Virus record (IMG/VR): IMGVR_UViG_3300033146_001182
Location: 1 to 64,000 of that record
From: a virus
DNA: 64,000 nt
Strand: one strand, 5' to 3'
In this document: piece by piece, positions 2,357 to 49,061 of the stretch
How positions within the stretch are numbered: position 1 is the stretch's first letter
How the letters are laid out: each line of letters starts with the position of its first letter
The notes under the pieces: generated by a model
The model's input: the letters and a program-made list of their open reading frames with translations, nothing else
The model's database searches: none
Told to the model about the DNA's origin: nothing
Program-made: the position numbers and the translations under genes

Positions 2357-3868
2357 ATGTCACTTAAAGACGAGTTTGAAAAATTGAAATTAAAATACCT
2401 TGAAGAAGCAGAAGGTATTGATTCTGACCCTGAAAAAGAGGATACACCAGAATATGAAGAAGTGGAAGGATTTAATATTCTCATACTTACATCATCAACT
2501 GATTCTAAGAACAGACGAACTAAAAAGAATCCGACTGTTACTAAGATAGAAAAATGGTGTAAATCTCATGATGTCAAATATTATACAGCATTTGTTGATA
2601 CTGCATATCTTAAAAAAGATGATGATATAATTAAAATGTATAATGTTGATGATAAAGAAGGTTATGAAATTGATAGAGATAAAACCTTTATTATTGCTAG
2701 AAGAGGTGTAGTATTTCATAGATATTCTCTTAATATTATGACCCGTCTTGAAAGATATCGTTTCTGTTTCTTGAATGAAAGAAATGCCATTGAAACATGT
2801 GAAGACAAATATATGACAACATTAAGATTAGAAGAGGCAAAAATACCAACACCAGAAACATCATTAGTTCCAACTGAGGAAATGATTGATTTGGCACATG
2901 AACAAGTAGGTGGTAAGTTTCCTGTTGTTGTTAAAACATTAAATGGAACACAAGGTAAAGGTGTTTTTATTGTTAATGAATATAAGGCATTGAAATCAAC
3001 ATTACAAGCTATTTGGTCAGTTGGTGATGGTGTTGAAATGATGTTACAAAAATATATCAAATCAGAGTATGATGTTCGTATTCATGTTTTAGGTGATAAA
3101 GTTATTGCCTCAATGAGAAGAGATGTTGTTGATAATGATTTTAGAAGTAATGTTCATTTAGGCGGACAAACAAAGAAATATAAACCCAACAAAGAAATTC
3201 AAGAATTGGCAGTTAGAGCAGCAAAAGCCGTTAAATGTAAATGGGCTGGTGTTGATATTATGTTTGATTCAAAAGGTAATCCATATGTATTAGAAGTAAA
3301 TGCTTCCCCAGGTACAGATGGTATTGAAGAATTAACAAATGAAGATATTGTCGGTAAAGTAATGGAGTTTTCAAAAAATACTATCAATTGGAATAGACCT
3401 TCACAAGAAATTGGTGTTGTTGAAACTATAGAAATTGATGGCATTGGTCAATTACATGCTAGATTTGATACAGGAAATAGTTCTGATAGTTCCTCATTGG
3501 ACGCACAGGACATTAAAATAGATAAAGACAGTATATCATGGGTTACAAACGGTAAACGCCTAACCAGTAAGAAGGTGAAGGATGTTAGAATGAAAAGTAA
3601 TACATCTTCTGATGATAATACTGATGAAAATAGAAGACCAGTTGTTTCATTAAATATTTCATTTGAAGGTGTTTCTTACGAAGATGTTTTATTTAATCTC
3701 AATGATAGAAGTCATAAAACTACACCAGTATTAATTAATAAAGATTTTATGATTCGTTCTGGTAGTGTCATCAATCCAGCAAAGGTTTATAGTGTTACAT
3801 CAAAACCCGATTATCTTAAAAAGAAAAAGAAAAAGAAATTTGAAAAAGAAGAACGGGAAGAAAATTAA
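2357..3868 (+). CDS. RimK-family ATP-grasp ligase fused to C-terminal RimK-associated aspartyl-protease-like domain
   Basis: DKY, PVVVK..GTQGKGV, QKYI..DVRIHV, FRSNVHLGG, GVD, LEVNASPG; C-terminal ARFDTG and PVLIN motifs. Confidence 0.85.
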   Translation: MSLKDEFEKLKLKYLEEAEGIDSDPEKEDTPEYEEVEGFNILILTSSTDSKNRRTKKNPTVTKIEKWCKSHDVKYYTAFVDTAYLKKDDDIIKMYNVDDKEGYEIDRDKTFIIARRGVVFHRYSLNIMTRLERYRFCFLNERNAIETCEDKYMTTLRLEEAKIPTPETSLVPTEEMIDLAHEQVGGKFPVVVKTLNGTQGKGVFIVNEYKALKSTLQAIWSVGDGVEMMLQKYIKSEYDVRIHVLGDKVIASMRRDVVDNDFRSNVHLGGQTKKYKPNKEIQELAVRAAKAVKCKWAGVDIMFDSKGNPYVLEVNASPGTDGIEELTNEDIVGKVMEFSKNTINWNRPSQEIGVVETIEIDGIGQLHARFDTGNSSDSSSLDAQDIKIDKDSISWVTNGKRLTSKKVKDVRMKSNTSSDDNTDENRRPVVSLNISFEGVSYEDVLFNLNDRSHKTTPVLINKDFMIRSGSVINPAKVYSVTSKPDYLKKKKKKKFEKEEREEN

Positions 3869-5285: not shown

Positions 5286-5507
5286 TTATTTTTTATTTCT
5301 CTTTCTGAATTTCTTTCTGTTTCTAGCAGCGTAAGCTTTCCCCCTGCGGTTTACACATTCTTCAAATCTACCAGTAATTTCATTGAATCTACCAGTTGGA
5401 ATATCCCCATAATCTTTAGTGAAGTCACGATGAACAATTCCGTCAATTTTATGAATATGCCAACATTTATGTTCAATTATTACATCTACAGTTTTATAAA
5501 AAGTCAT
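5286..5507 (-). CDS. small basic early protein
   Basis: ATG at 5507 after SD GGAGA and consensus promoter (start revised from ORF track). Confidence 0.65.
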   Translation of the reverse strand: MTFYKTVDVIIEHKCWHIHKIDGIVHRDFTKDYGDIPTGRFNEITGRFEECVNRRGKAYAARNRKKFRKRNKK

Positions 5508-7720: not shown

Positions 7721-8611
7721 TTAACTCTCCCTTTTGAATGGTAACTCAAATGGAAGGATTGATTGTTGAAAACCAGATGCACCCATGTGTCCACCACCCC
7801 CATATTTTTTTGCAATACTTCCAACATCTACATTTTTCTTATCGGTATACATTGATATGGTCCATTTACCGTTTGTAAAGCCAAAGGTTAATACGGCATC
7901 ATAATCCCTATGATTGAACTTAGAATCAAACAGTTGTGAATTGATATTCATTGCATTTGCTGCCAAAAACCTATGATTTTCAAAATACAAATCAAATGAA
8001 TGTGATTTACAATATGATTCATTCAATTGTGTCTGGTAATCATAACAAATATCCCCAATTCTTATAATTTCATCATATAAATCTTCATCTTCTTCAATAA
8101 TTTTTTTCCAGAATAACCTATCATCAGCATTAGGGTCTTTGAATCTAATACCTGTCTGATAAATTAATACATCTTCATGGAAATCCAAATCCCATACATC
8201 ATATCTACCAATCAATTGAATTCCTCTTGGATAGATTTTATCAGCTGTAAACCACTCCCATGTTAATTCACATCCAGCATCACCAACTCGTTGAATTCCT
8301 TGAAATGATTGTCCTGATTTTTTCATATCTTCAATTGCTGTTTTATGATGATCTATCCAAATAAAATTATCTTCACCGACAATTTCTTTGAGTTTAATCA
8401 TATCGGAAAATGGTTGAAGACCAAAATCAACCATATATACTTTCTGTGCTCGCTTAATAAGATTCCAAGGAACATCATATCCATAGTTCATTTTATACAT
8501 CTGACATTCTTTACCAAGATTTTCTTCAAAGTATCCTACAATTGCTCCTGCACTAATTCCATCTGCGTCATTATGATGAATTACTAGATTTTCAATATCT
8601 TTTTGTTTCAT
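7721..8611 (-). CDS. DHH/DHHA1 phosphoesterase
   Basis: HHNDADG, MVDF, IDHH, GGGGHMGASGF. Confidence 0.9.
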   Translation of the reverse strand: MKQKDIENLVIHHNDADGISAGAIVGYFEENLGKECQMYKMNYGYDVPWNLIKRAQKVYMVDFGLQPFSDMIKLKEIVGEDNFIWIDHHKTAIEDMKKSGQSFQGIQRVGDAGCELTWEWFTADKIYPRGIQLIGRYDVWDLDFHEDVLIYQTGIRFKDPNADDRLFWKKIIEEDEDLYDEIIRIGDICYDYQTQLNESYCKSHSFDLYFENHRFLAANAMNINSQLFDSKFNHRDYDAVLTFGFTNGKWTISMYTDKKNVDVGSIAKKYGGGGHMGASGFQQSILPFELPFKRES

Positions 8612-37071: not shown

Positions 37072-39282
37072 TTAATTTTGACCAACATAAGGTCCTTTAT
37101 GTAATTTCAAATATTTTTCTCGTCCAATAGCATCAACAACTTCAGCATCTTTGGATGATCTTAATTGTTTCAAAACACCATTTGCAGTTTTCCTTGAAAC
37201 AACCGTACTTCTTGGTGTGTCAAATGGGGAATAAATCCACTCGTATTGATTTTTTTGTCCTTTTATTTTATGTAATACCTTTCCATCAGGTTGAACAAGT
37301 AACCATACATTAGCAGTAGATTCATTCAACATCACATCAATCCTTTCTAATATATCCATTTAATGTTTCCATCCTCCCGCATTTTTAGCAAATTGAGCCA
37401 TTTTTCTTACATGTGGATCATCACTATTAAGACCCTTTTGAATATCAGCATCAGTAATAGGTTCATCTTCATCTTTACCTAACCATTGATGAAATGCACC
37501 TTTTTTTAATTTTAATTTCATTTTTTCTAAAATATATTTTTCTACTACTTCATCAATACTCATAATTTCAATCCTTTTAGTGGTTTTACCCAACCTTCAC
37601 CACTCTTTTGATCTGAAAACCCTGTAAATTCTGTTTTTCCTGCTTCTGGAAAATAATTCGGATTGTTTGGCATTTCAACACTCGAATCTTTTTCAAGCCA
37701 ATGATACGCTCCTTCGGGTGTTTTCCCTAAATATTTCGCCCATTTTGGGGCATCTTTTAGAATTGGTTTGCCTACAGTAACCTTAACTTTTAATTTTCTA
37801 CCTAATTTGTTTAATATTGTACCCTCACTAATATATTTTCCTACTACTTCATCAATATTCATAGTATACCTCAACTAATATACATGTTCAATTCAAAACG
37901 ACCTTCATCACCATAAATCTGAACATGTAACATCTTTTTTTGTTCTTTGTTATTTTTATATAACTTCAAATCAAATTTATTAGTTTTTCCATTTGTCGGT
38001 TTCTTTGGACCTCGTCCAATTTCATCAAACATTTGTGAACCAATATTTTCTTTATCGGATTCATCATCTAATGTATATCCATTTTTCTTTACAAACTTCT
38101 CAATCTCTGATACAGCATCAGAATATGATTTGTGATAAATCTCATAATCTTTTTTACCTTCATTTAGATATTTTTCTAATTTCATGATGATCTCCTAATA
38201 TTTATTCCTTAATAATTTCTTTTCCCAAGGTCCATATGTCTTGAATTCAGTAACTTTTCTACTCATTTCTTCATATGTATAACAGTATACATTTTTTTTA
38301 TCAATTTGTCCAATTTCATAATACATCTTTTTTGGAAGTTTAATTGGTATTGTTTCATCTATAACAATTTGATTATCCTCCACCCAAGCATGAGTATAAA
38401 CGATACCTTCTATATTTCCTTGTCCTGTTACCAATCCATGACACAATTTTAATCTTTTACTTTTGTGTGACATCATATAATTCAATGCAACTTGAAAACA
38501 ATCTCCACCTTGATTTGCATCAGGAATATCATCATGATAACCAAAGCCTTCAAATAATCTAAGAAATCTTGAATATCTCATTACTTTTCCACCACAAAAG
38601 CTGTTTTCTTTCCATCTTTTTTCTTGGAAAACTCCATCCCCAAAGAATCAGCAATATCAATCAATGACAATGTGAGATCATCATTTGGTAAATATGTCAA
38701 GACAACCTCATCATCATAATTAGTTATATTAACATCAGCTTTAATACTTTTTAATTTTAACTGTTTATTTTTTGCCATCAATATTGACTTTGATAACATT
38801 TTACGATCATTTGATGATAATACTTCTTCATTGATGATTTCTGTATCTCCAATCCATGATGTAATTTTTTCAGTAATATCCATAGTTTCCTCTTTATCAT
38901 TACTTAATTTTTCTTCTTGATCAACTTCACCATCCTTAAAAGCGTCTTCTTTATCAGGGGATAATTCATGTCTTTTACCAGAAGTATGTTTCCATAATCT
39001 ATCACCTAAAATACTTTTAAGACTATCTAATGTATCTGAATATGAATCATCAGAACCCATACCTATAGAATGTTCAAATTCATCGTAATTCCAATTTTCA
39101 TCTTTATCAGCGGCAGGAACATACTTTATGGTTGAACCTGTCAATCTATTTGTTACCAATTCTGGAACATATTTATCACCAAATACTGTTGTTCCTGTTG
39201 GCAAATCATCATCGGAAGCAGGTCCTGTTGAACCATCATCTGGATATCCACCTGTTACAGTAGTCTCAAATATATTCTTCAT
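37072..39282 (-). other. run of six small late hypothetical CDSs (37072-37359, 37360-37563, 37560-37862, 37871-38185, 38195-38581, 38581-39282), probable internal head proteins
   Basis: Tightly coupled ORFs, each with an N-terminal [LI]xE signature. Confidence 0.65.
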
Positions 39283-40013
39283 TAATAACTATACCATCCT
39301 TTTACTTTTTGTTTGATATTTTCTTTACTAATATCATTTGTATTTTCAAGATACTTTCCATTATTATTTATAAGTTCTTGAATAATATCTTGCCCATATA
39401 AGTTTTTTATTGGAGCAGAAAAGAAAGTATTTGTTTTTGAATATAATTTAGATACAACTTTATCAGTTAATTCACCATCATTGTTGTTAACTTCTAAAAA
39501 CCAATCAAATTCACTTTTGTAATAAGGTTTTAATCTATTAATTTTTTCCCATGTTTCAACAATAAAATCAACAGGAACATGTCTACCAATTCGTTTTTCT
39601 CTTTCTTCAGCACGAGCAATTGCTGCATCTAAATCAGTATTTACCCATAACATACCAGTATCATAACCATATGCCTCTAATATACCTTGTCTTGATTTGA
39701 CATCACTTGTCTTTGACGATGTTCCATCAATCCATAAAGGTAATAAACTATTAATATATAATGTTAACTGATTGGCAGATATTCTTTTAATATCATCTTT
39801 GAAAAAATCCCATTGTCCTTTTGCACCTGCACCTAGAAACTCCACCCAAGTATCAGTGTTTACAACTCTTGGTTCAACACCACCACTTAATTTCTTTCTA
39901 ACAAATGACTTACCAGCACCTGGAGTTCCTGCTAAAAATATCGCTTTTAATATACCCTTATCGTTAATACTTTCTGTTAACATATAATTTTCAAATTTCA
40001 TCATGTTCCCCAT
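39282..40013 (-). CDS. P-loop kinase (zeta-toxin/AAA_33-like)
   Basis: LAGTPGAGKS, VNTD, WIDGT, AIARAEER. Confidence 0.75.
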   Translation of the reverse strand: MGNMMKFENYMLTESINDKGILKAIFLAGTPGAGKSFVRKKLSGGVEPRVVNTDTWVEFLGAGAKGQWDFFKDDIKRISANQLTLYINSLLPLWIDGTSSKTSDVKSRQGILEAYGYDTGMLWVNTDLDAAIARAEEREKRIGRHVPVDFIVETWEKINRLKPYYKSEFDWFLEVNNNDGELTDKVVSKLYSKTNTFFSAPIKNLYGQDIIQELINNNGKYLENTNDISKENIKQKVKGWYSY

Positions 40014-42021: not shown

Positions 42022-42057
42022 TAAAAAAATAGGGTGATACCCGAAAGGCATCACCCC
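42022..42057 (-). terminator. rho-independent terminator closing the Ubl cassette
   Basis: GGGTGATGCC-TTTCG-GGTATCACCC then T-run. Confidence 0.85.
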
Positions 42058-42084
42058 AATTTCATAGGAGGAAATTAATTTTTA

Positions 42085-43194
42085 CTAATGAATAATTCTT
42101 ATATTAACAGGTTCTTCTTCAACAATTTCTTCCTCTGTCAAATCACAGATTGAATCATCGTTGTCATCGGTATCAATTTTAATATCAATACCATATGATA
42201 CTTGGTGATAACCTGTTTGTCCACCAGTACCACTTTCTTCATCTTCGGTTGTCCAATTTTCAACTTCATTTTTTGTTGTATCTTCAATGGACTCCCATTC
42301 TTCCTCTTCCCATTCCTCATCAGTCATGACCATAGTTTGTTCTTCTTCCATTTGTTGAAGAAGATGAAGTTCTTGGTCAGCAGTTCCATCTTCAATCAAT
42401 TCAGTAATATCATCATCTGAATAATATTTACTTAATGATGTACGAAGTTCTTTTTCCATTTTAGGAGTGTAATACAAACCTGTTACTGGATGAAGATGTC
42501 GTGTTACAACATCTTTTGAAATTGAAGAATCAATATCACTAAAATGATTAACATAAACAGGACGATTGGAATTGATTTTAGAAGTAAACTCTTTTTCAAA
42601 AGCATCTTCATCAAGAACTTTCTTATGTTTTACTGAAAAAGTCAAATCTTCAGCAAGAATATAAGAACCACAAAGGGTCTTCATTCTTACTTGTCCTTTA
42701 ATTGGTGAAGAAGGGTTAGTTGAAACTACAATTGAAACATCATGGTTTTGATTAATATAAGCATCATCAGTTCCACTAAAAAATGCTCCCATTGTATGGT
42801 GTGAATGGATAACACCAATGATTTTACGACCATCACTCCAACCATATTCAACATTATAAACATTAACTCCTGTTACTTCTTGACTATCAGGAATAATAAT
42901 ATCAGTTACCAGAACATGTTTTTGTTCATGATTAACTTCACCTTCCAGATAAGCCAACCATTCCAAAGTTGGGTAATAATCTTGAAGTTTTTTGATTTTC
43001 TCATCAGCCAAAACTTCAAATTCAACCTTATATTTAGGAACGGTCATATGACCACATGTTTTGATGATTTTAATACCAGCATCCCAACAAGTATTTGCTG
43101 CGGCAATTTGTTTGGCAAATGCCCCACCCTTATTATGTTTTTTAATAAGTGCGTCCATTTCCTCATTGGTCATTGGTTTCAAATGATTTTTCAT
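42085..43194 (-). CDS. JAB/JAMM (MPN+) metalloprotease with acidic C-terminal tail
   Basis: EW...IHSHHTMGAFFSGTD = E..HxH-x7-S-x2-D. Confidence 0.88.
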   Translation of the reverse strand: MKNHLKPMTNEEMDALIKKHNKGGAFAKQIAAANTCWDAGIKIIKTCGHMTVPKYKVEFEVLADEKIKKLQDYYPTLEWLAYLEGEVNHEQKHVLVTDIIIPDSQEVTGVNVYNVEYGWSDGRKIIGVIHSHHTMGAFFSGTDDAYINQNHDVSIVVSTNPSSPIKGQVRMKTLCGSYILAEDLTFSVKHKKVLDEDAFEKEFTSKINSNRPVYVNHFSDIDSSISKDVVTRHLHPVTGLYYTPKMEKELRTSLSKYYSDDDITELIEDGTADQELHLLQQMEEEQTMVMTDEEWEEEEWESIEDTTKNEVENWTTEDEESGTGGQTGYHQVSYGIDIKIDTDDNDDSICDLTEEEIVEEEPVNIRIIH

Positions 43195-43216
43195 ATTAAA
43201 TCCTTATAGTTTATTT

Positions 43217-43261
43217 GTTATCAGATGGGGCTAGTATAACCTAACCCCATGATTCTGTCAA
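43217..43261 (-). promoter_or_regulatory. sigma70 promoter + ATCTGATAAC leader (JAB gene)
   Basis: TTGACA-17-TATACT. Confidence 0.8.
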
Positions 43262-43263
43262 GA

Positions 43264-43857
43264 TTAAACAGAATAGAAATCTTTCAAATGACAACCCATT
43301 TCACCACCTGAATATTTCATTACTTTTCCAACAACCAGTGCGGCAGCCATAATGGCAGGAACAGCCCAAGATGGGGTAACACGATAACCATCTTGTGTAT
43401 CACCAACATCCCAAGAAGCAACACGGTCATTGATAGACATACGTTCACCATCATAACCTGATTTTACATACTTAGCACCATTCTCATCTGCCATTCGTTG
43501 ATTTTCAAGTTGTGATTTATGGTTATCAGTACAATCAATAACCCAATCAACATTTTTTGGATAAGTATGGTCTTTCAGTGGAAATGGAAATGCCTTCACT
43601 TTTGTATCAGGACGAAGTTGTTTAATAACAGTTTTGACAATATCAGCTTTATTTTTACCGATAAAATCAGCTGTTACATCCAACCGATTAAGATTAGATT
43701 CTTCCAAAGTATCAGGGTCAAAAACATACAGTTCTTTGATACCAGACATTGCCAAAAGTTTAGCAACATGAAAACCAATTCCGCCAGCACCAACTACTAA
43801 TACTTTCAAATCAGTATTAATTCCTTCAATCAATTCTTGCCGATTGTAAATGGACAT
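43264..43857 (-). CDS. ThiF/MoeB/E1-like adenylyltransferase
   Basis: YNRQ, VVGAGGIG, DPDTLEESNLNR, GKNKA, IDCTDN. Confidence 0.92.
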   Translation of the reverse strand: MSIYNRQELIEGINTDLKVLVVGAGGIGFHVAKLLAMSGIKELYVFDPDTLEESNLNRLDVTADFIGKNKADIVKTVIKQLRPDTKVKAFPFPLKDHTYPKNVDWVIDCTDNHKSQLENQRMADENGAKYVKSGYDGERMSINDRVASWDVGDTQDGYRVTPSWAVPAIMAAALVVGKVMKYSGGEMGCHLKDFYSV

Positions 43858-43878
43858 AATTTTTTCCTTTCAAATAAT

Positions 43879-43924
43879 CGTTATCAGATAGATATATAAT
43901 ACGAAATTAAGTTTGATTTGTCAA
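43879..43924 (-). promoter_or_regulatory. sigma70 promoter + ATCTGATAACG leader (E1 gene)
   Basis: TTGACA-17-TATTAT. Confidence 0.8.
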
Positions 43925-43966
43925 GAAAAGATTGGGCGAAATAAATCACCCAATCTTTCCTCATTA

Positions 43967-44827
43967 TCAGGTTGACCAGACAGAACCAACATTATCTGAT
44001 ACATCTTGTGTGATACCAGACCGTTCATCTGCCCTTGAGACAGAATACTGGACATCTTCACCACGATTAAGAAGATGTTGTTGGAGGGTTGAAAGTCTAG
44101 GCAATCCTGTTGGTGTGGTAGTTCCTGGTGATGCTGAATTGACATTTTCCAAAACAACCAAGGCTTCACGACCAATTGCCAAAATATCATCAGGTGAAGA
44201 CCAAGTTTGTGGATGTCGCCAATCACCCCAACAATCAGAAGAACGACCCATTGCGTGATAATGTGAAAACTTATCTAATCCAATGGTTTTACGGACGATA
44301 ACTTCATTTACACGGTCATCTTCTGTTTTAATTTCAATAGTAACAGGTGAAATAAGACGTTTGGAGTATTTTGGTTCAATTGGACGACCATCAACATATT
44401 TTGGCCAGTATACACCTTGATACAACCAAACCATACGACCATTACCATTTGAAACAACAGACAAACCAGCTTTTGCGTGTTCACGAGTAATATTTGGCAT
44501 AATATTACTTGAGTTCAATCGTTCCTGTAATTCACGTTCTTTTTCTTCATAATCCATACGGTTTTGTTCAACCATATAAGACATTTCTGACATTTTTTCA
44601 TTCAGAACTGATTTGATTTGTTGAAGTTTTTCGGTAAGTTTAGCAGAATATTCTGCCCGAATATCGTCTTCTGGTAGAGAAAATTCCTCAGTAATTTCAA
44701 GTTTCACCACCCGTCCACCGATACGAACAGTCATTCCCTCAGATTTTACGTCATCAATTGAAACACTATCAAGAGTGTTATCAATAGAATCTTTAATATC
44801 TTCAACAACAGATGTATCCCAAGCCAT
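43967..44827 (-). CDS. coiled-coil + E2/UBC-like conjugating enzyme
   Basis: Sole Cys in HYH-x7-CWG (E2 HPN-x7-C spacing), followed by WSS...LENVNSASP; flanked by Ubl and E1. Confidence 0.65.
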   Translation of the reverse strand: MAWDTSVVEDIKDSIDNTLDSVSIDDVKSEGMTVRIGGRVVKLEITEEFSLPEDDIRAEYSAKLTEKLQQIKSVLNEKMSEMSYMVEQNRMDYEEKERELQERLNSSNIMPNITREHAKAGLSVVSNGNGRMVWLYQGVYWPKYVDGRPIEPKYSKRLISPVTIEIKTEDDRVNEVIVRKTIGLDKFSHYHAMGRSSDCWGDWRHPQTWSSPDDILAIGREALVVLENVNSASPGTTTPTGLPRLSTLQQHLLNRGEDVQYSVSRADERSGITQDVSDNVGSVWST

Positions 44828-44846
44828 AATGTTTTCCTTTCTTTTT

Positions 44847-44892
44847 CGTTATCAGATGAATATATAATACTATTCTTTTCAGGTGGTGTCAA
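44847..44892 (-). promoter_or_regulatory. sigma70 promoter + ATCTGATAACG leader (E2 gene)
   Basis: TTGACA-17-TATTAT. Confidence 0.8.
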
Positions 44893-44897
44893 GAGGA

Positions 44898-44938
44898 AAA
44901 AATACAGGATTGAGGTTTTAATTCAATCCTGTATTTTT
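44898..44938 (-). terminator. terminator after Ubl gene
   Basis: 16-bp inverted repeat AAAAATACAGGATTGA/TCAATCCTGTATTTTT. Confidence 0.8.
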
Positions 44939-44957
44939 AATTGAAGTTACGTTATTT

Positions 44958-45170
44958 CTAACCAGCCACTTCATAAGGCTTAATTTCCAGTGCCATGCCA
45001 CTTTCCATATTAGCTGGAGCAGTAGCAGGGTCAATTTCCGAACCATTCAGAATAACACGGAATTTCCCAAGTCCAGCATCTTTTGCGGCACTAATTACGG
45101 TATCTTTGAAGGAAGTTCCCTCAGTGATGGTAGAAGTAGAACCATTGATAGTCAGAGTTGCGTTTGCCAT
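44958..45170 (-). CDS. ubiquitin-like (beta-grasp) protein ending in Gly
   Basis: 70 aa; FRVILNG..I...MESGMALEIKPYEVAG-COOH; SD AGGAG. Confidence 0.75.
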   Translation of the reverse strand: MANATLTINGSTSTITEGTSFKDTVISAAKDAGLGKFRVILNGSEIDPATAPANMESGMALEIKPYEVAG

Positions 45171-45218: not shown

Positions 45219-45314
45219 ATAATAACCAATCTAAAATCATTTGTCAATACTTTTTTATTTTTTATTTTTCCCGAAGACAAGTAAGATAATAACAAAATCA
45301 TCTTACTCTGTCAA
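45219..45314 (-). promoter_or_regulatory. two tandem sigma70 promoters upstream of Ubl
   Basis: TTGACA-17-TATTAT at 45219-45247 and 45286-45314. Confidence 0.8.
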
Positions 45315-45320
45315 CGATTT

Positions 45321-45776
45321 TTATTCAACATTCCATGATTTATTTTCTTCAATTTTGTTAAGATCCCCTAATGGAAGACCACAACTTTTTCTAAGAAAAT
45401 TCCAACCATAGATACGACCATTTGTATCAAAATCTGGTTTTTCAATCAATTTAATGTCATCAGTTGACCACATATTTTGATTTTTTTGTACCATTTCAAT
45501 CCATTGAACATATTGAGTATGATAATCGTAATATCTATCAATATCAGCTTGTGTTGGATTGATAGTAAGGTCTTCATTTAGAATGATTTTTAATTGTTCA
45601 TCAACATATTCTTGTGCTTTAACAACATCATAAACATTTTTTAATAATTTAACATCTTCTTCTGTTAGTTGAACTGGTTGATTTTGTTGAACTTTTTCTT
45701 GTTCATTAATTTTTTTAATTTCGTCAGATAATAACCACCGTTCTATTTTACCACTTAGATTTTTGAAAAATCCCAT
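45321..45776 (-). CDS. hypothetical protein
   Basis: ORF with SD-like GAAAGG. Confidence 0.6.
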   Translation of the reverse strand: MGFFKNLSGKIERWLLSDEIKKINEQEKVQQNQPVQLTEEDVKLLKNVYDVVKAQEYVDEQLKIILNEDLTINPTQADIDRYYDYHTQYVQWIEMVQKNQNMWSTDDIKLIEKPDFDTNGRIYGWNFLRKSCGLPLGDLNKIEENKSWNVE

Positions 45777-45791
45777 AACTAACCCTTTCCG

Positions 45792-46529
45792 TTATTCTTC
45801 TAATTTAGATAATAGGTAATACTTTTCACTACTGTCATTATTTTCAAATAATACCATACCAGCACCTTGTGCGTCAACCCAAGTAAACTTTGCAGTAAAA
45901 TTATTTAGGTTTTCATTGATACATTGTAATACAGCATTAAAGTTCTTAAAATCAAAACAAATATCAATATCATCATGATCAATTTCACCCAATTCAAAAT
46001 TGATTCCATTGGCAAACCGATTGGTTCTATCAGTTGTTTCCACACTAAACTTTTTATCTTTTACTGTAAAATAAACTTTTTCAAACTTACCAGCAACTTT
46101 ACGGATTTTATCAAAATATTCACCAACTTCTGGTGTCAATTCAAGTTCATAAAATGCAGGAATATTTGGTTCTTGTCCAGTGAATGTAGTGACAAATGAA
46201 GACATACAAAAATGAAGATTTGTTCTATGCCTACCATCCTTCAATGTTAATTTATCATCTGTTACTATAGCATTTACTGTTTCACTATCAATGAGATTAA
46301 GATACGGTTTAACCTTCATATTAGGTTCATCAAAATTAAGTTCAATTTCACCTTGAATTTCATTGATGGCTTCGTTTTTTAAGTCAAGATAAACAACAAC
46401 TGTATTATTGGCACTCCTCATTTTTGTTGTAATTTTCTCATTATCAGCTTTTAACTGAACAGATGGAATTACATAATTAAGAGTTGCTTTCTTAATAACT
46501 TCCTGTAATTGTTCTACATTTATAATCAT
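45792..46529 (-). CDS. 45: sliding clamp (T4 gp45-like)
   Basis: 245 aa, clamp-like alpha/beta pattern, near clamp loader genes. Confidence 0.7.
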   Translation of the reverse strand: MIINVEQLQEVIKKATLNYVIPSVQLKADNEKITTKMRSANNTVVVYLDLKNEAINEIQGEIELNFDEPNMKVKPYLNLIDSETVNAIVTDDKLTLKDGRHRTNLHFCMSSFVTTFTGQEPNIPAFYELELTPEVGEYFDKIRKVAGKFEKVYFTVKDKKFSVETTDRTNRFANGINFELGEIDHDDIDICFDFKNFNAVLQCINENLNNFTAKFTWVDAQGAGMVLFENNDSSEKYYLLSKLEE

Positions 46530-47847: not shown

Positions 47848-48147
47848 TTATTCTATCTCCATAATGTTTTCAAATATATGCCAAATTAAAGAATTACTAT
47901 TCATTGACACTGTTCCAATAAATCTTAATGTATGTTCATAATTCATAGGATTACCAGTTCCAAATACTCTAATTCGTCTTGGAACTAAAGGATTCTCATC
48001 ATTCAATTTTACCCACATATATAATGAATCAATCATTTCTCCATATGTTGGTGGTTGAGACATTACACTAAGGATTTCTGCATCTTTCGGTAGGTTAATT
48101 ATTTGAAAATCAGTTACTTCCAGTTTATATTTATATATTTTTTCCAT
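47848..48147 (-). CDS. hypothetical phage protein
   Basis: IYKY...GTG...FIGTV...WHIFE pattern. Confidence 0.65.
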   Translation of the reverse strand: MEKIYKYKLEVTDFQIINLPKDAEILSVMSQPPTYGEMIDSLYMWVKLNDENPLVPRRIRVFGTGNPMNYEHTLRFIGTVSMNSNSLIWHIFENIMEIE

Positions 48148-49061
48148 TATACTACACCTTTCATTATCATATTAAAATACATTGTCATAAAATTAATTTC
48201 TCTATTTCCAACAATATTATCTCTATAATCATGTTCACCCAATAGTAAGATTGCCTCACCATCTTTTTTGAATACTGAATCTTCTGCCATAAGAGTTGTA
48301 TAGATATGTGAATATAATCCAGCATAATCAATTTGATGTGATTTAAGAATTGTTCTTACTGCTTCAGGATCACCATTTTTCATGGCTTCTAAAATCTCAC
48401 CATAAGTCTCATCATATGCAGTAATTTTAATATTATTAACCAATTCTCCATTAATAACATTCTCTTTTAATACTACCAATGTCTTTCTAATATCAGGTTT
48501 TTGTTTCCAGATTGACTTAACTAAATCAATTACAACTTTTTTGTCATATTTAACACCCTCTTTATCAAGAATATACCAACATTTCTTGACAACATCAATT
48601 GCAGGTGGATTAGATAGTTCAATAACTCTACATCTTGACATTAATTCTGGAATAATTTTATGTACATAGTTACAACAAAAAATAAATCTTGTTACACTTT
48701 GAACTGATTCCATTAAATCACGAAGCATTGCCTGTGCATTGGTAGATAGATAATCAGCCTCATTAAGATAAACAATTTTAATTCCACCAAAACCAGCACT
48801 TGTGGCAAAGGATTTAACTTTATCTCTGATTGCATCAATACCTGTTTCATCTGAACAGTTCAATTTCAAAATATCAGGATTTTTTGTGTGTTTCAAAATG
48901 TCAACAAATGTTCCTTTACCAGTACCAGAAGGACCGTATAGGATAATATTTGGTAATTCTTCTAATGCTGCTTGTAATTTTGGTTTAACTTCATCATCAA
49001 GAATCATTTCATCAAAAGTTTTAGGACTATACTTAAACTCATATAAGTCATTCAAATTCAT
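48147..49061 (-). CDS. 44: clamp loader large subunit (T4 gp44-like AAA+)
   Basis: KYSPKTF, GPSGTGKG, NEADYLS, SRC. Confidence 0.9.
   Translation of the reverse strand: MNLNDLYEFKYSPKTFDEMILDDEVKPKLQAALEELPNIILYGPSGTGKGTFVDILKHTKNPDILKLNCSDETGIDAIRDKVKSFATSAGFGGIKIVYLNEADYLSTNAQAMLRDLMESVQSVTRFIFCCNYVHKIIPELMSRCRVIELSNPPAIDVVKKCWYILDKEGVKYDKKVVIDLVKSIWKQKPDIRKTLVVLKENVINGELVNNIKITAYDETYGEILEAMKNGDPEAVRTILKSHQIDYAGLYSHIYTTLMAEDSVFKKDGEAILLLGEHDYRDNIVGNREINFMTMYFNMIMKGVV

Follow-up and report, generated by a model that had tools for sequence, protein, structure and literature searches.

The IMG/VR virus record analyzed here comprises 88,775 bases and has an estimated completeness of 35%; its first 64 kb (64,000 nucleotides) are called the window in the following. 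Within the window, a cassette of four genes was found that may code for a ubiquitin-like conjugation system. The genes are separate from one another, have the same orientation, and occupy positions 42085–45170 of the minus strand. In the direction of transcription they encode a candidate ubiquitin-like protein (Ubl), an E2-like protein (E2L), a minimal E1, and a JAB metallopeptidase. The respective open reading frames (ORFs) are the following (aa, amino acids):

44958..45170, minus strand: ORF for the Ubl candidate, 70 aa, C-terminal end PYEVAG (G70)
43967..44827, minus strand: ORF for the E2-like protein E2L, 286 aa, motif H189-Y-H191-x7-C199-W-G
43264..43857, minus strand: ORF for the 197-aa minimal E1, an adenylation domain of the ThiF type, match to Pfam ThiF
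42085..43194, minus strand: ORF for the JAMM/JAB metallopeptidase, 369 aa, match to Pfam Prok-JAB, acidic C-terminal tail

The four co-oriented, adjacent genes and every motif quoted for them in a first-pass annotation, which had been made from the letters of the window, were recovered in the ORF list and by residue position. The pairwise ratios of nonsynonymous to synonymous substitution rates (dN/dS) versus three related loci were 0.07–0.37 for all four genes, and 0.09–0.23 for the adjoining sliding clamp gene versus the same three loci. The values of the cassette genes show that the ORFs are real genes under purifying selection. Together with the recurrent gene order and the Pfam matches to ThiF and Prok-JAB that are described below, they also show that the arrangement goes beyond chance.

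Two of the four proteins were matched by models of known families. The E1 was recognized by Pfam ThiF (PF00899) with 97.1 bits and an E value of 1.2e-27 (cut-off 28.1), and the PADLOC models for "E1-E2" proteins (Cap2) of CBASS (anti-phage signaling based on cyclic oligonucleotides) matched it over their E1 part only (1.5e-18). Its relatives in the PDB include Uba1, MccB, NAE, SAE2, ThiF, Cap2, UBA5, MoeB, and Uba4 (E values from 5e-13 to 1e-8). The motifs GAGGIG, SNLNR, and DCTD are present, and in an alignment of 16 sequences, i.e., the window protein and 15 relatives, two of them from very distant cassettes, the residues R6, Q7, GxGGxG, D47, D49, N55, R58, K70, and D108-C-T-D111 turned out to be invariant or nearly so. 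The nucleotide-binding and adenylation residues are thus retained, in agreement with the earlier assignment of the protein as a ThiF/E1. The E1 has no conserved catalytic cysteine, because its only cysteines are C109, which belongs to the DCTD motif, and C189, at which eight of the 16 sequences (L009–L013, L017, L020, and L021) have another residue. In the stretch that matches the position of the crossover loop, W149, Y158, S163, W164, and P167 are invariant in the same alignment.

The JAB protein scored above the cut-off of Pfam Prok-JAB (PF14464; 35 bits, 1.4e-8, cut-off 25), and its catalytic motif E78...H130-S-H132-x7-S140-x2-D143 was kept in all 16 aligned sequences, so that the assignment as a JAMM protease also stands. 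Its tail is variable and acidic, with 30% Asp and Glu over the last 139 residues. Sequence and profile searches of the PDB with the JAB protein gave nothing significant.

For the 70-aa protein, 37 homologues were found. All 21 aligned sequences share the C-terminal motif PYE-x-AG; 15 of them carry one to six residues after the Gly of the AG, while six, including the window's own protein, end at this Gly. Such tails look like the pattern of a Ubl precursor that needs trimming by a peptidase. In every cassette seen, including the distant ones, the protein either ends at the Gly or would be processed there, and the Ubl of the distant cassettes is homologous to the family of the window protein (hhalign probability 98%, E value 1.6e-13). 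The protein had no match to a family of Pfam, PHROGs, or PADLOC. Pfam scans of family members were performed at E≤1 with 16 Ubl members and 33 E2L members; none of the 16 Ubl members matched ThiS, and a search of the own record with the ThiS hidden Markov model (HMM) was also empty. Nothing significant was obtained in sequence and profile searches of the PDB, and three of the eight sub-significant profile matches were SUMO or ubiquitin (E values 0.17–0.39), over the stretch FRV.LNG.EI...AP. From the C-terminal AG, the tails, these weak SUMO/ubiquitin matches, and structural leads with the name "ThiS" we infer that the protein is a beta-grasp Ubl; the fold that the first-pass annotation had ascribed to it thus keeps the status of a prediction, and the features of the C-terminus are observed. 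One longer or fused form of the Ubl was found, on the 955-base contig P0228, where a homologue with 69% identity continues after PYEVAG with a cysteine-rich extension of 173 aa.

The E2L protein is the least conventional part of the cassette. It had no match to a family of Pfam, PHROGs, or PADLOC, and it contains a single cysteine, C199, which together with the HYH at residues 189–191 forms the motif HYH-x7-C, followed by WG and, further downstream, by TWSSPDD...VLENVNSASP. Homologues were numerous: 82 clusters at 90% identity were obtained among 849 candidates, and 112 representatives at 50% identity were retrieved from 1.84 billion proteins at E≤1e-3, 71 of them at E≤1e-30. The alignment comprised 191 rows, i.e., the window protein, the 82 clusters, and 108 other representatives, as four of the 112 were already among the 82. 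The column of C199 contains Cys in 181 rows, and the remaining ten rows are fragments of 84–250 aa with nine gaps and one misaligned Ser. The other well-conserved columns are H189 (179 rows), Y190 (181), H191 (182), G201 (182), and W284 (176). H189, Y190, H191, C199, and G201 are kept by all full-length members, and the cysteine on which the earlier E2 prediction had been built is thus conserved throughout the family. Even members with only 24–30% identity retain F-x-HYH...DC(W/L/T/S)G...(I/V)N..S...P..G(L/M)P. In contrast to these residues, the N-termini vary widely; the homologues have lengths of 283–479 aa and include SH3-like or Cys/His-rich additions. Because the longest of the 112 representatives has 479 aa, there is no E1 fusion among them. 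The family constitutes an annotation gap in viral metagenomes, as its 112 clusters are not covered by any Pfam, PHROGs, or PADLOC model. In one contig (L006, around position 5430), an in-frame stop (GVY*PK) lies inside the E2L gene, where the other three of four near-identical contigs read W; either the sequencing introduced an error or this copy is broken.

The known E2 families did not recognize E2L. In the scans of the 33 members, 68 Pfam families were matched in all, and neither UQ_con nor Prok-E2 was among the 25 most-matched families listed. HMM searches of the own genome with UQ_con, Prok-E2_D, and Prok-E2_B gave no match on the E2L gene, and Prok-E2_A, C, and E were covered through the general Pfam scans. 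A lone Prok-E2_B match was dismissed because it is out of frame with the DNA polymerase gene in which it lies and is interrupted by a stop. Sequence and profile searches of the PDB with E2L yielded no significant match. Weak leads came from the ESM Atlas, where 39% of one cluster with a score of 0.84 corresponded to Prok-E2_D and a cluster of Prok-E2_B had a TM score of 0.47.

The relationship to E2 enzymes became apparent at the level of predicted structures. The model of the whole protein (predicted local distance difference test, pLDDT, 78) consists of an N-terminal hairpin, a long helix (residues 52–107), and a C-terminal alpha/beta domain. A model of this domain alone (residues 105–262; pLDDT 77, predicted TM score 0.75) shows a helix, then four strands that contain a small insert, the HYH/Cys loop, and a long helix, which in the model is the order of elements of the UBC fold (residues ~105–255). 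The VIA fold search with the domain against 48,161 chains returned 13 chains at Z≥5. Ranks 1–12 were all E2 enzymes (Z 5.1–6.1, root mean square deviation (rmsd) 4.3–5.0 Å, 114–125 residues aligned), rank 13 was an RWD domain, and the later rows were UEV, RWD, or E2. In a second fold search, 30 of 998 chains reached Z≥5, and all of those listed were E2 or RWD. The top match of the whole-protein model was UbcH10 with Z 6.7 over model residues 109–252. The best structural matches were UbcH10, Ube2K, UbcH8, Ubc13, and Pex4p, whereas the Bil E2 structure 8tyz_C reached only Z 4.5 with the domain and thus ranged below the eukaryotic E2s. The sub-threshold Foldseek rows were rich in E2, UEV, UFC1, and Cap2.

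The motif register points in the same direction. The distance to C199 is ten residues from H189 and eight from H191, and the same spacings separate the H and N of the HPN motif from the catalytic Cys of E2 enzymes (HPN-x7-C); the W...P and L..(P)N..P pattern after the Cys is an E2 pattern as well. Eukaryotic and archaeal UBC E2s (UQ_con) thus share with E2L the H-x-(N/H)-x7-C spacing followed by a W and a long helix, in addition to being its best structural matches. However, there is no detectable sequence similarity, HYH takes the place of HPN, and E2L has an extra 104-residue N-terminal part (hairpin and long helix) as well as an insert between strands 2 and 3. The E2 assignment is credible because the fold matches are exclusive to E2-type domains and the motif is in register, and with the modest scores of the fold searches the 286-aa protein is best described as E2-like, with a predicted UBC-like C-terminal domain. 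The proposal of the first-pass annotation that it is an E2 is therefore favored by the fold search, the HYH-x7-C spacing, the conservation of the Cys, and the strict synteny, but not by the family models, with UQ_con or Prok-E2 in 0 of 33 members among the 25 most-matched Pfam families listed.

The synteny was analyzed by scanning IMG/VR with the E2L alignment, which revealed 17 loci. The gene order clamp-Ubl-E2L was found in all 17, and the E1 and JAB genes were also present in 16 of them, as had been expected for related phages if the four genes belong together. In the remaining locus (L014), the contig ends inside E2L, and hence neither E1 nor JAB is seen. Because four loci (L002, L004, L005, and L006) are near-identical contigs, the number of independent loci is about 14. 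Across the 17 loci, the identity to the window proteins declines from 69% to 36% for E2L and from 81% to 30% for the clamp. Among the cassette neighbors, no E3, target, or sulfur enzyme was seen. In one locus (L003:5900-8390), E2L and E1 are separated by an insert of about 0.8 kb, and E1 and JAB by one of about 1 kb. The latter contains a second, partial E1 copy at 7995–8192 (residues 130–196, 79% identical), and the two inserts may result from the insertion of a mobile element with duplication.

An alignment of a distant E2L subfamily (A5; 24–30% identical to the window E2L) uncovered three further viral contigs, which have no T4-like clamp nearby and belong to non-T4-like phages. Two of them (L020 and L021) again have the order Ubl-E2L-ThiF-JAB, with a Ubl that ends in YDKVG, a ThiF-type E1 (E values 5e-24 and 8e-25), and a Prok-JAB slightly further on. 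The third contig (L022) ends inside E2L. In addition, 185,579 species genomes were scanned with one peptide pattern. This resulted in a single locus with the whole cassette, a contig of 27,887 bases (L019) in a metagenome-assembled genome of "Candidatus Izimaplasma bacterium HR2", which equals the viral contig of IMG/VR locus L008 in length and overlaps with it in range. It is very probably a phage contig that was binned with the bacterium, and the Izimaplasma label is a weak hint to the host at best. As the species genomes yielded only this probable phage contig, the E2L family is, as far as the searches reach, virus-borne and always accompanied by Ubl, E1, and JAB.

The intergenic gaps of the cassette contain the following putative transcription signals, all on the minus strand:

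45286..45314, minus strand: sigma-70-like promoter, first of two 5′ of the Ubl gene (TTGACA-17-TATTAT; consensus scan)
45219..45247, minus strand: sigma-70-like promoter, second 5′ of the Ubl gene (consensus scan)
44898..44938, minus strand: hairpin with U-run 3′ of the Ubl gene, terminator-like (fold −18.7 kcal/mol, z −8.7; not listed by the consensus scan)
44864..44892, minus strand: sigma-70-like promoter 5′ of E2L (consensus scan)
43923..43962, minus strand: hairpin with U-run 3′ of E2L, terminator-like, overlapping the −35 of the E1 promoter (fold −25.5 kcal/mol, z −8.3)
43896..43924, minus strand: sigma-70-like promoter 5′ of E1 (consensus scan)
43233..43261, minus strand: sigma-70-like promoter 5′ of JAB (TTGACA-17-TATACT; consensus scan)
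42030..42058, minus strand: intrinsic terminator 3′ of JAB (13-bp stem and T-run; fold −20.8 kcal/mol, z −6.2)

The pattern TTGACA-N17-TATWMT occurs seven times in the 64 kb versus 0.30 times expected (100 shuffles, with a maximum of two in any of them). Five of the seven sites lie on the minus strand in the intergenic gaps of the cassette, two before Ubl and one each before E2L, E1, and JAB. This layout of a promoter for each gene was also found in the closer relatives L001, L002, L003, L007, and L008; it is absent from L009–L013, L015, and L017, which have little space between the genes, and in L016 such promoters occur only 5′ of the Ubl gene (the scan of the relatives left out L014). The T4 late-promoter motif TATAAATA was not enriched in the window, with 11 occurrences versus 18.5 expected. 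The near-consensus sigma-70 promoters at each gene suggest that the cassette might be transcribed by the unmodified host RNA polymerase early in infection, with the reservation that consensus matches are not proof. An 11-base box, (C/T)ATCTGATAAC, is present on the minus strand at 43217–43227, 43880–43890, and 44848–44858, five to six bases after the −10 hexamers of the E2L, E1, and JAB promoters, and nowhere else on this strand. The box is likewise found after the E2L promoter in L001, and it could represent a common operator or a leader element.

The cassette was compared with known systems. Bil operons (BilABCD) are bacterial ISG15-like anti-phage systems (PMC10557695; 10.1101/2023.09.04.556158). 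They are built from the same four parts, i.e., a Ubl whose C-terminal Gly may first have to be exposed by trimming (BilA has one extra residue, which is removed by its deubiquitinase; PMC10557695), a stand-alone Cys E2, a JAB, and an E1. In both cases there is no E3, and the Bil E2 is thought to pick the targets. However, the Bil E1 is composed of IAD, AAD, and CYS (PMC10557695, PMC11601596), whereas the E1 of the cassette is a single domain, and BilB contains the motif CEHH with the His after the Cys (PMC10557695), whereas the HYH of E2L lies 8–10 residues before it. Moreover, Bil is bacterial and directed against phages, whereas the cassette is carried by a phage. The likeness to Bil that had been noted earlier thus holds for the list of parts, but not for the E1 architecture and the E2 motif.

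The Bub systems (6E/DUF6527) resemble the cassette in other respects. Their E1 is Cys-less, and the sole invariant residue of its crossover loop, the tyrosine Y370, is required for conjugation (PMC11601596). Y158 could be the counterpart of Y370, its location in the loop being deduced by sequence only. Maturation of the Ubl by the JAB and an E1 of the minimal homodimer type are further features that are described for Bub (PMC11601596) and predicted for the cassette. In contrast, the Bub E2 has Ser/His and uses oxyester chemistry, whereas E2L has an invariant Cys; Bub proteins are fused (Ubl-E2, JAB-E1, or E2-E1), whereas the cassette consists of four separate genes; and the DUF6527 serine protease of Bub (PMC11601596) has no equivalent among the cassette genes or their neighbors.

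Type II CBASS (Cap2/Cap3) is similar in that the E1 matches the PADLOC models of Cap2, that a JAB is the partner, and that Cap2 appears in the weak Foldseek rows of E2L, but Cap2 is a fusion of E2 and E1, which are separate genes here. Cap2 conjugates the CD-NTase itself, without a separate Ubl. Among phages, the tail assembly proteins I and K of lambda and T1 (Ubl and JAB/NlpC) likewise combine a Ubl that has a C-terminal Gly with an adjacent JAB (PMC1779556). However, these are tail modules without E1 or E2 (PMC1779556), whereas both are present in the cassette, which lies in a replication/early region. In the same article, phage Ubl and JAB pairs are described only for these two tail modules, and a preprint on Asgard viruses reports viral E1-like genes only. 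Full-text literature, with subscription journals and supplementary tables not covered, yielded no account of tailed phages, T4-like or other, that carry a Ubl-E2-E1-JAB cassette.

Taken together, the cassette is placed apart from the known systems because it lacks the E1 and E2 features of Bil, the Ser E2, the fusions, and the DUF6527 of Bub, and the fusion of Cap2, and because it has no match to UQ_con, Prok-E2, or ThiS. It is therefore best classified as a probable prokaryotic Ubl conjugation operon that is carried by phages and contains a new E2-like family.

In our view, the four genes probably constitute a self-contained, phage-encoded system for the conjugation of a Ubl to proteins that is neither Bil nor Bub. 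The Ubl would expose a C-terminal Gly. For most relatives, the JAB would first have to trim one to six residues off the precursor, a step that would not be needed for the window Ubl, which already ends at G70. The minimal and probably homodimeric E1 would adenylate Gly70 with ATP, and the activated Ubl would then be transferred to Cys199 of E2L. As the E1 has no conserved catalytic cysteine, this transfer would occur either directly from the adenylate or via the invariant tyrosine Y158. The HYH of E2L would occupy the place of the HPN of E2 enzymes. E2L would hand the Ubl over to a target lysine, and since no E3 is present, its variable N-terminal part might pick the target. The JAB would reverse the mark. 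In view of the near-consensus host-type promoter at each gene, the system would be made early and would probably act on host or early phage proteins, with a function in takeover or counter-defense.

A more far-reaching proposal, which we put forward tentatively, is that the cassette encodes the first complete ubiquitination-type pathway owned by a phage. It would combine a virus-specific E2 family with the HYH-x7-C motif and an E1 that forms no thioester, so that the Ubl would reach the E2 Cys from the adenylate or via Tyr158, and it would tag host or phage proteins early in infection for takeover or counter-defense. If this is true, the cassette would be a chemical hybrid between the thioester systems (Bil and eukaryotic) and the oxyester systems (Bub), and a tool for takeover or counter-defense comparable to the use of ADP-ribosylation by T4. 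The sliding clamp, the gene of which is always located just upstream in the T4-like clade, would then be one candidate target. Prokaryotic Ubl conjugation has so far been described as an anti-phage weapon (Bil and CBASS Cap2) or a suspected one (Bub). A conserved version owned by phages would show that bacterial viruses, like eukaryotic viruses, use Ubl chemistry themselves. Furthermore, with only four proteins (70 + 286 + 197 + 369 aa), the compact system would offer the opportunity to study the loading of an E2 cysteine by a Cys-less E1 and the selection of targets by an E2 in the absence of an E3.

Several observations weigh against the assumption of a conjugation system. Sequence and profile methods link neither E2L to E2 enzymes nor the 70-aa protein to Ubl or ThiS. 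Foldseek with the E2L models gave no match at E≤0.001 (PDB and BFVD), and all Z values of VIA are below 8 at an rmsd of 4.0–5.0 Å, a range for which the tool warns that possibly only a common arrangement is detected. In addition, the HYH/Cys loop was modeled at moderate confidence (pLDDT blocks 57 and 70), and neither a target nor an E3 was found near the cassette. According to PMC11601596, all known E1 proteins have a catalytic cysteine, which the E1 of the cassette lacks. Finally, the Atlas neighbors of the 70-aa protein are named "ThiS" (scores 0.92–0.94), and genes for an IscU/NifU-like protein and for at least five radical S-adenosylmethionine (SAM) enzymes are located in the same record, so that sulfur or iron–sulfur (Fe-S) chemistry matters to the phage. 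The last two findings, as well as the minimal, ThiF/MoeB-like E1 domain without a conserved catalytic Cys, are in accordance with the main rival explanation, according to which the small protein is a sulfur carrier. The E1 would adenylate it, and after conversion to a thiocarboxylate it would act as the sulfur donor for a cofactor, a nucleoside, or some metabolite, as in ThiS/ThiF, MoaD/MoeB, TtuB/TtuC, and CysO/Mec+; Cys199 of E2L would mark a persulfide carrier or an acceptor enzyme, and the JAB would trim the carrier. Small proteins ending in Gly are common to ThiS/MoaD and TtuB/SAMP systems and the cassette, and JAB partners occur in operons with ThiS/MoaD-like proteins and E1 in sulfur assimilation (PMC1779556). 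However, an E2-like protein is always present in the cassettes. E2L matched only UBC, UEV, and RWD folds and not rhodanese, ThiG, MoaE, or PP-loop, and the UBC-like partner would be left unexplained. The tail is AG and not GG, and the Pfam model of ThiS failed to match both the family members and the own record. Genes for a rhodanese, a cysteine desulfurase (Aminotran_5), or a PP-loop thiolase were not found in the 88.8-kb record, which is 35% complete, and the flanks of the inspected cassette loci contain no sulfur donor or known acceptor, with the limit that ThiG and MoaE were not searched for. Overall, a sulfur carrier is regarded as unlikely.

It would also be conceivable that the Ubl is activated but that E2L is no general protein ligase, and instead an auto-modified acceptor or switch, a UEV/RWD-like adaptor, or an enzyme that transfers the Ubl to a non-protein acceptor, e.g., a lipid. 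The transfer of Atg8 with Atg3 is a precedent for the latter. The UBC-like fold indeed includes the noncatalytic UEV and RWD domains, which are present in the same lists of fold matches, no E3 or target is encoded nearby, and Bub yields mainly a BubA-BubB product in vitro (PMC11601596). Nevertheless, the invariant Cys with the flanking His, which is seen in 181 full-length homologues, points to catalysis rather than to a passive adaptor, and the locus does not suggest a link to lipids, so that such a restricted role of E2L is also judged to be improbable. A pathway like that for ribosomally synthesized and post-translationally modified peptides, in which the E1-like enzyme would act on the C-terminal end of the small protein in the manner of MccB or PaaA, with JAB and E2L responsible for tailoring or releasing the product, is very unlikely. 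MccB and PaaA are among the PDB relatives of the E1 (E values 2.2e-12 and 2e-7), but the 70-aa protein is conserved over its full length as a folded domain and not as leader and core, it ends in Gly, and no exporter or immunity gene was seen among the cassette neighbors. MccB requires a C-terminal Asn.

The genomic environment of the cassette was characterized with PHROGs, which revealed a T4-type set of replication and structural genes in the window. The replication genes comprise a family-B DNA polymerase, a gp41-like helicase, a primase, a gp32-like single-stranded DNA-binding protein, and the following two:

45792-46529: sliding clamp (PHROGs)
48147-49061: clamp loader (PHROGs)

Further matches in the window are ribonucleotide reductase, tail sheath, and tail fibers. 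Among 2,411 records, the best matches of the DNA polymerase were those of cultured T4-like cyanophages, with an identity of only about 30%. No match to the cassette DNA or to the E2L protein was present among 50,697 cultured or deposited phage records, and the E1 gave only distant ThiF/MoeB-like matches with the same records. The identity of only about 30% and the missing matches in the phage collection are the reasons to consider the phage a member of a deep, uncultured T4-like lineage. The earlier description as a T4-like phage is thus in line with the replication module, but the polymerase places it far from the cultured representatives.

Several additional genes of the phage should be mentioned. 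The 151-aa gene without a known family between the clamp and Ubl genes (45321-45776) is kept in the closer relatives L001–L008 (27–48% identity) and absent in L009–L017. A protein of 503 aa (window 2357-3868) matched the PHROG for the ribosomal protein S6 glutaminyl transferase (RimK-like, E value 7e-29) and is a further candidate for a protein-modifying enzyme of the phage. At 39282-40013 of the window, a P-loop kinase-like protein of 243 aa is encoded, with matches to Pfam Zeta_toxin and AAA_33 and to PHROGs for polynucleotide kinase/ATPase. Outside the window, the own record (L023:3654-4028, L023:16855-19570, and L024:173-2102) contains a gene for a NifU/IscU-like Fe-S scaffold protein (E value 2.7e-49) and five consecutive radical-SAM genes. 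Also encoded there are a cluster for sugar modification with an epimerase, a DegT-type aminotransferase, a PIG-L deacetylase, and a glycosyltransferase, two SAM-lyase-like proteins, and a small protein that resembles multihaem cytochromes.

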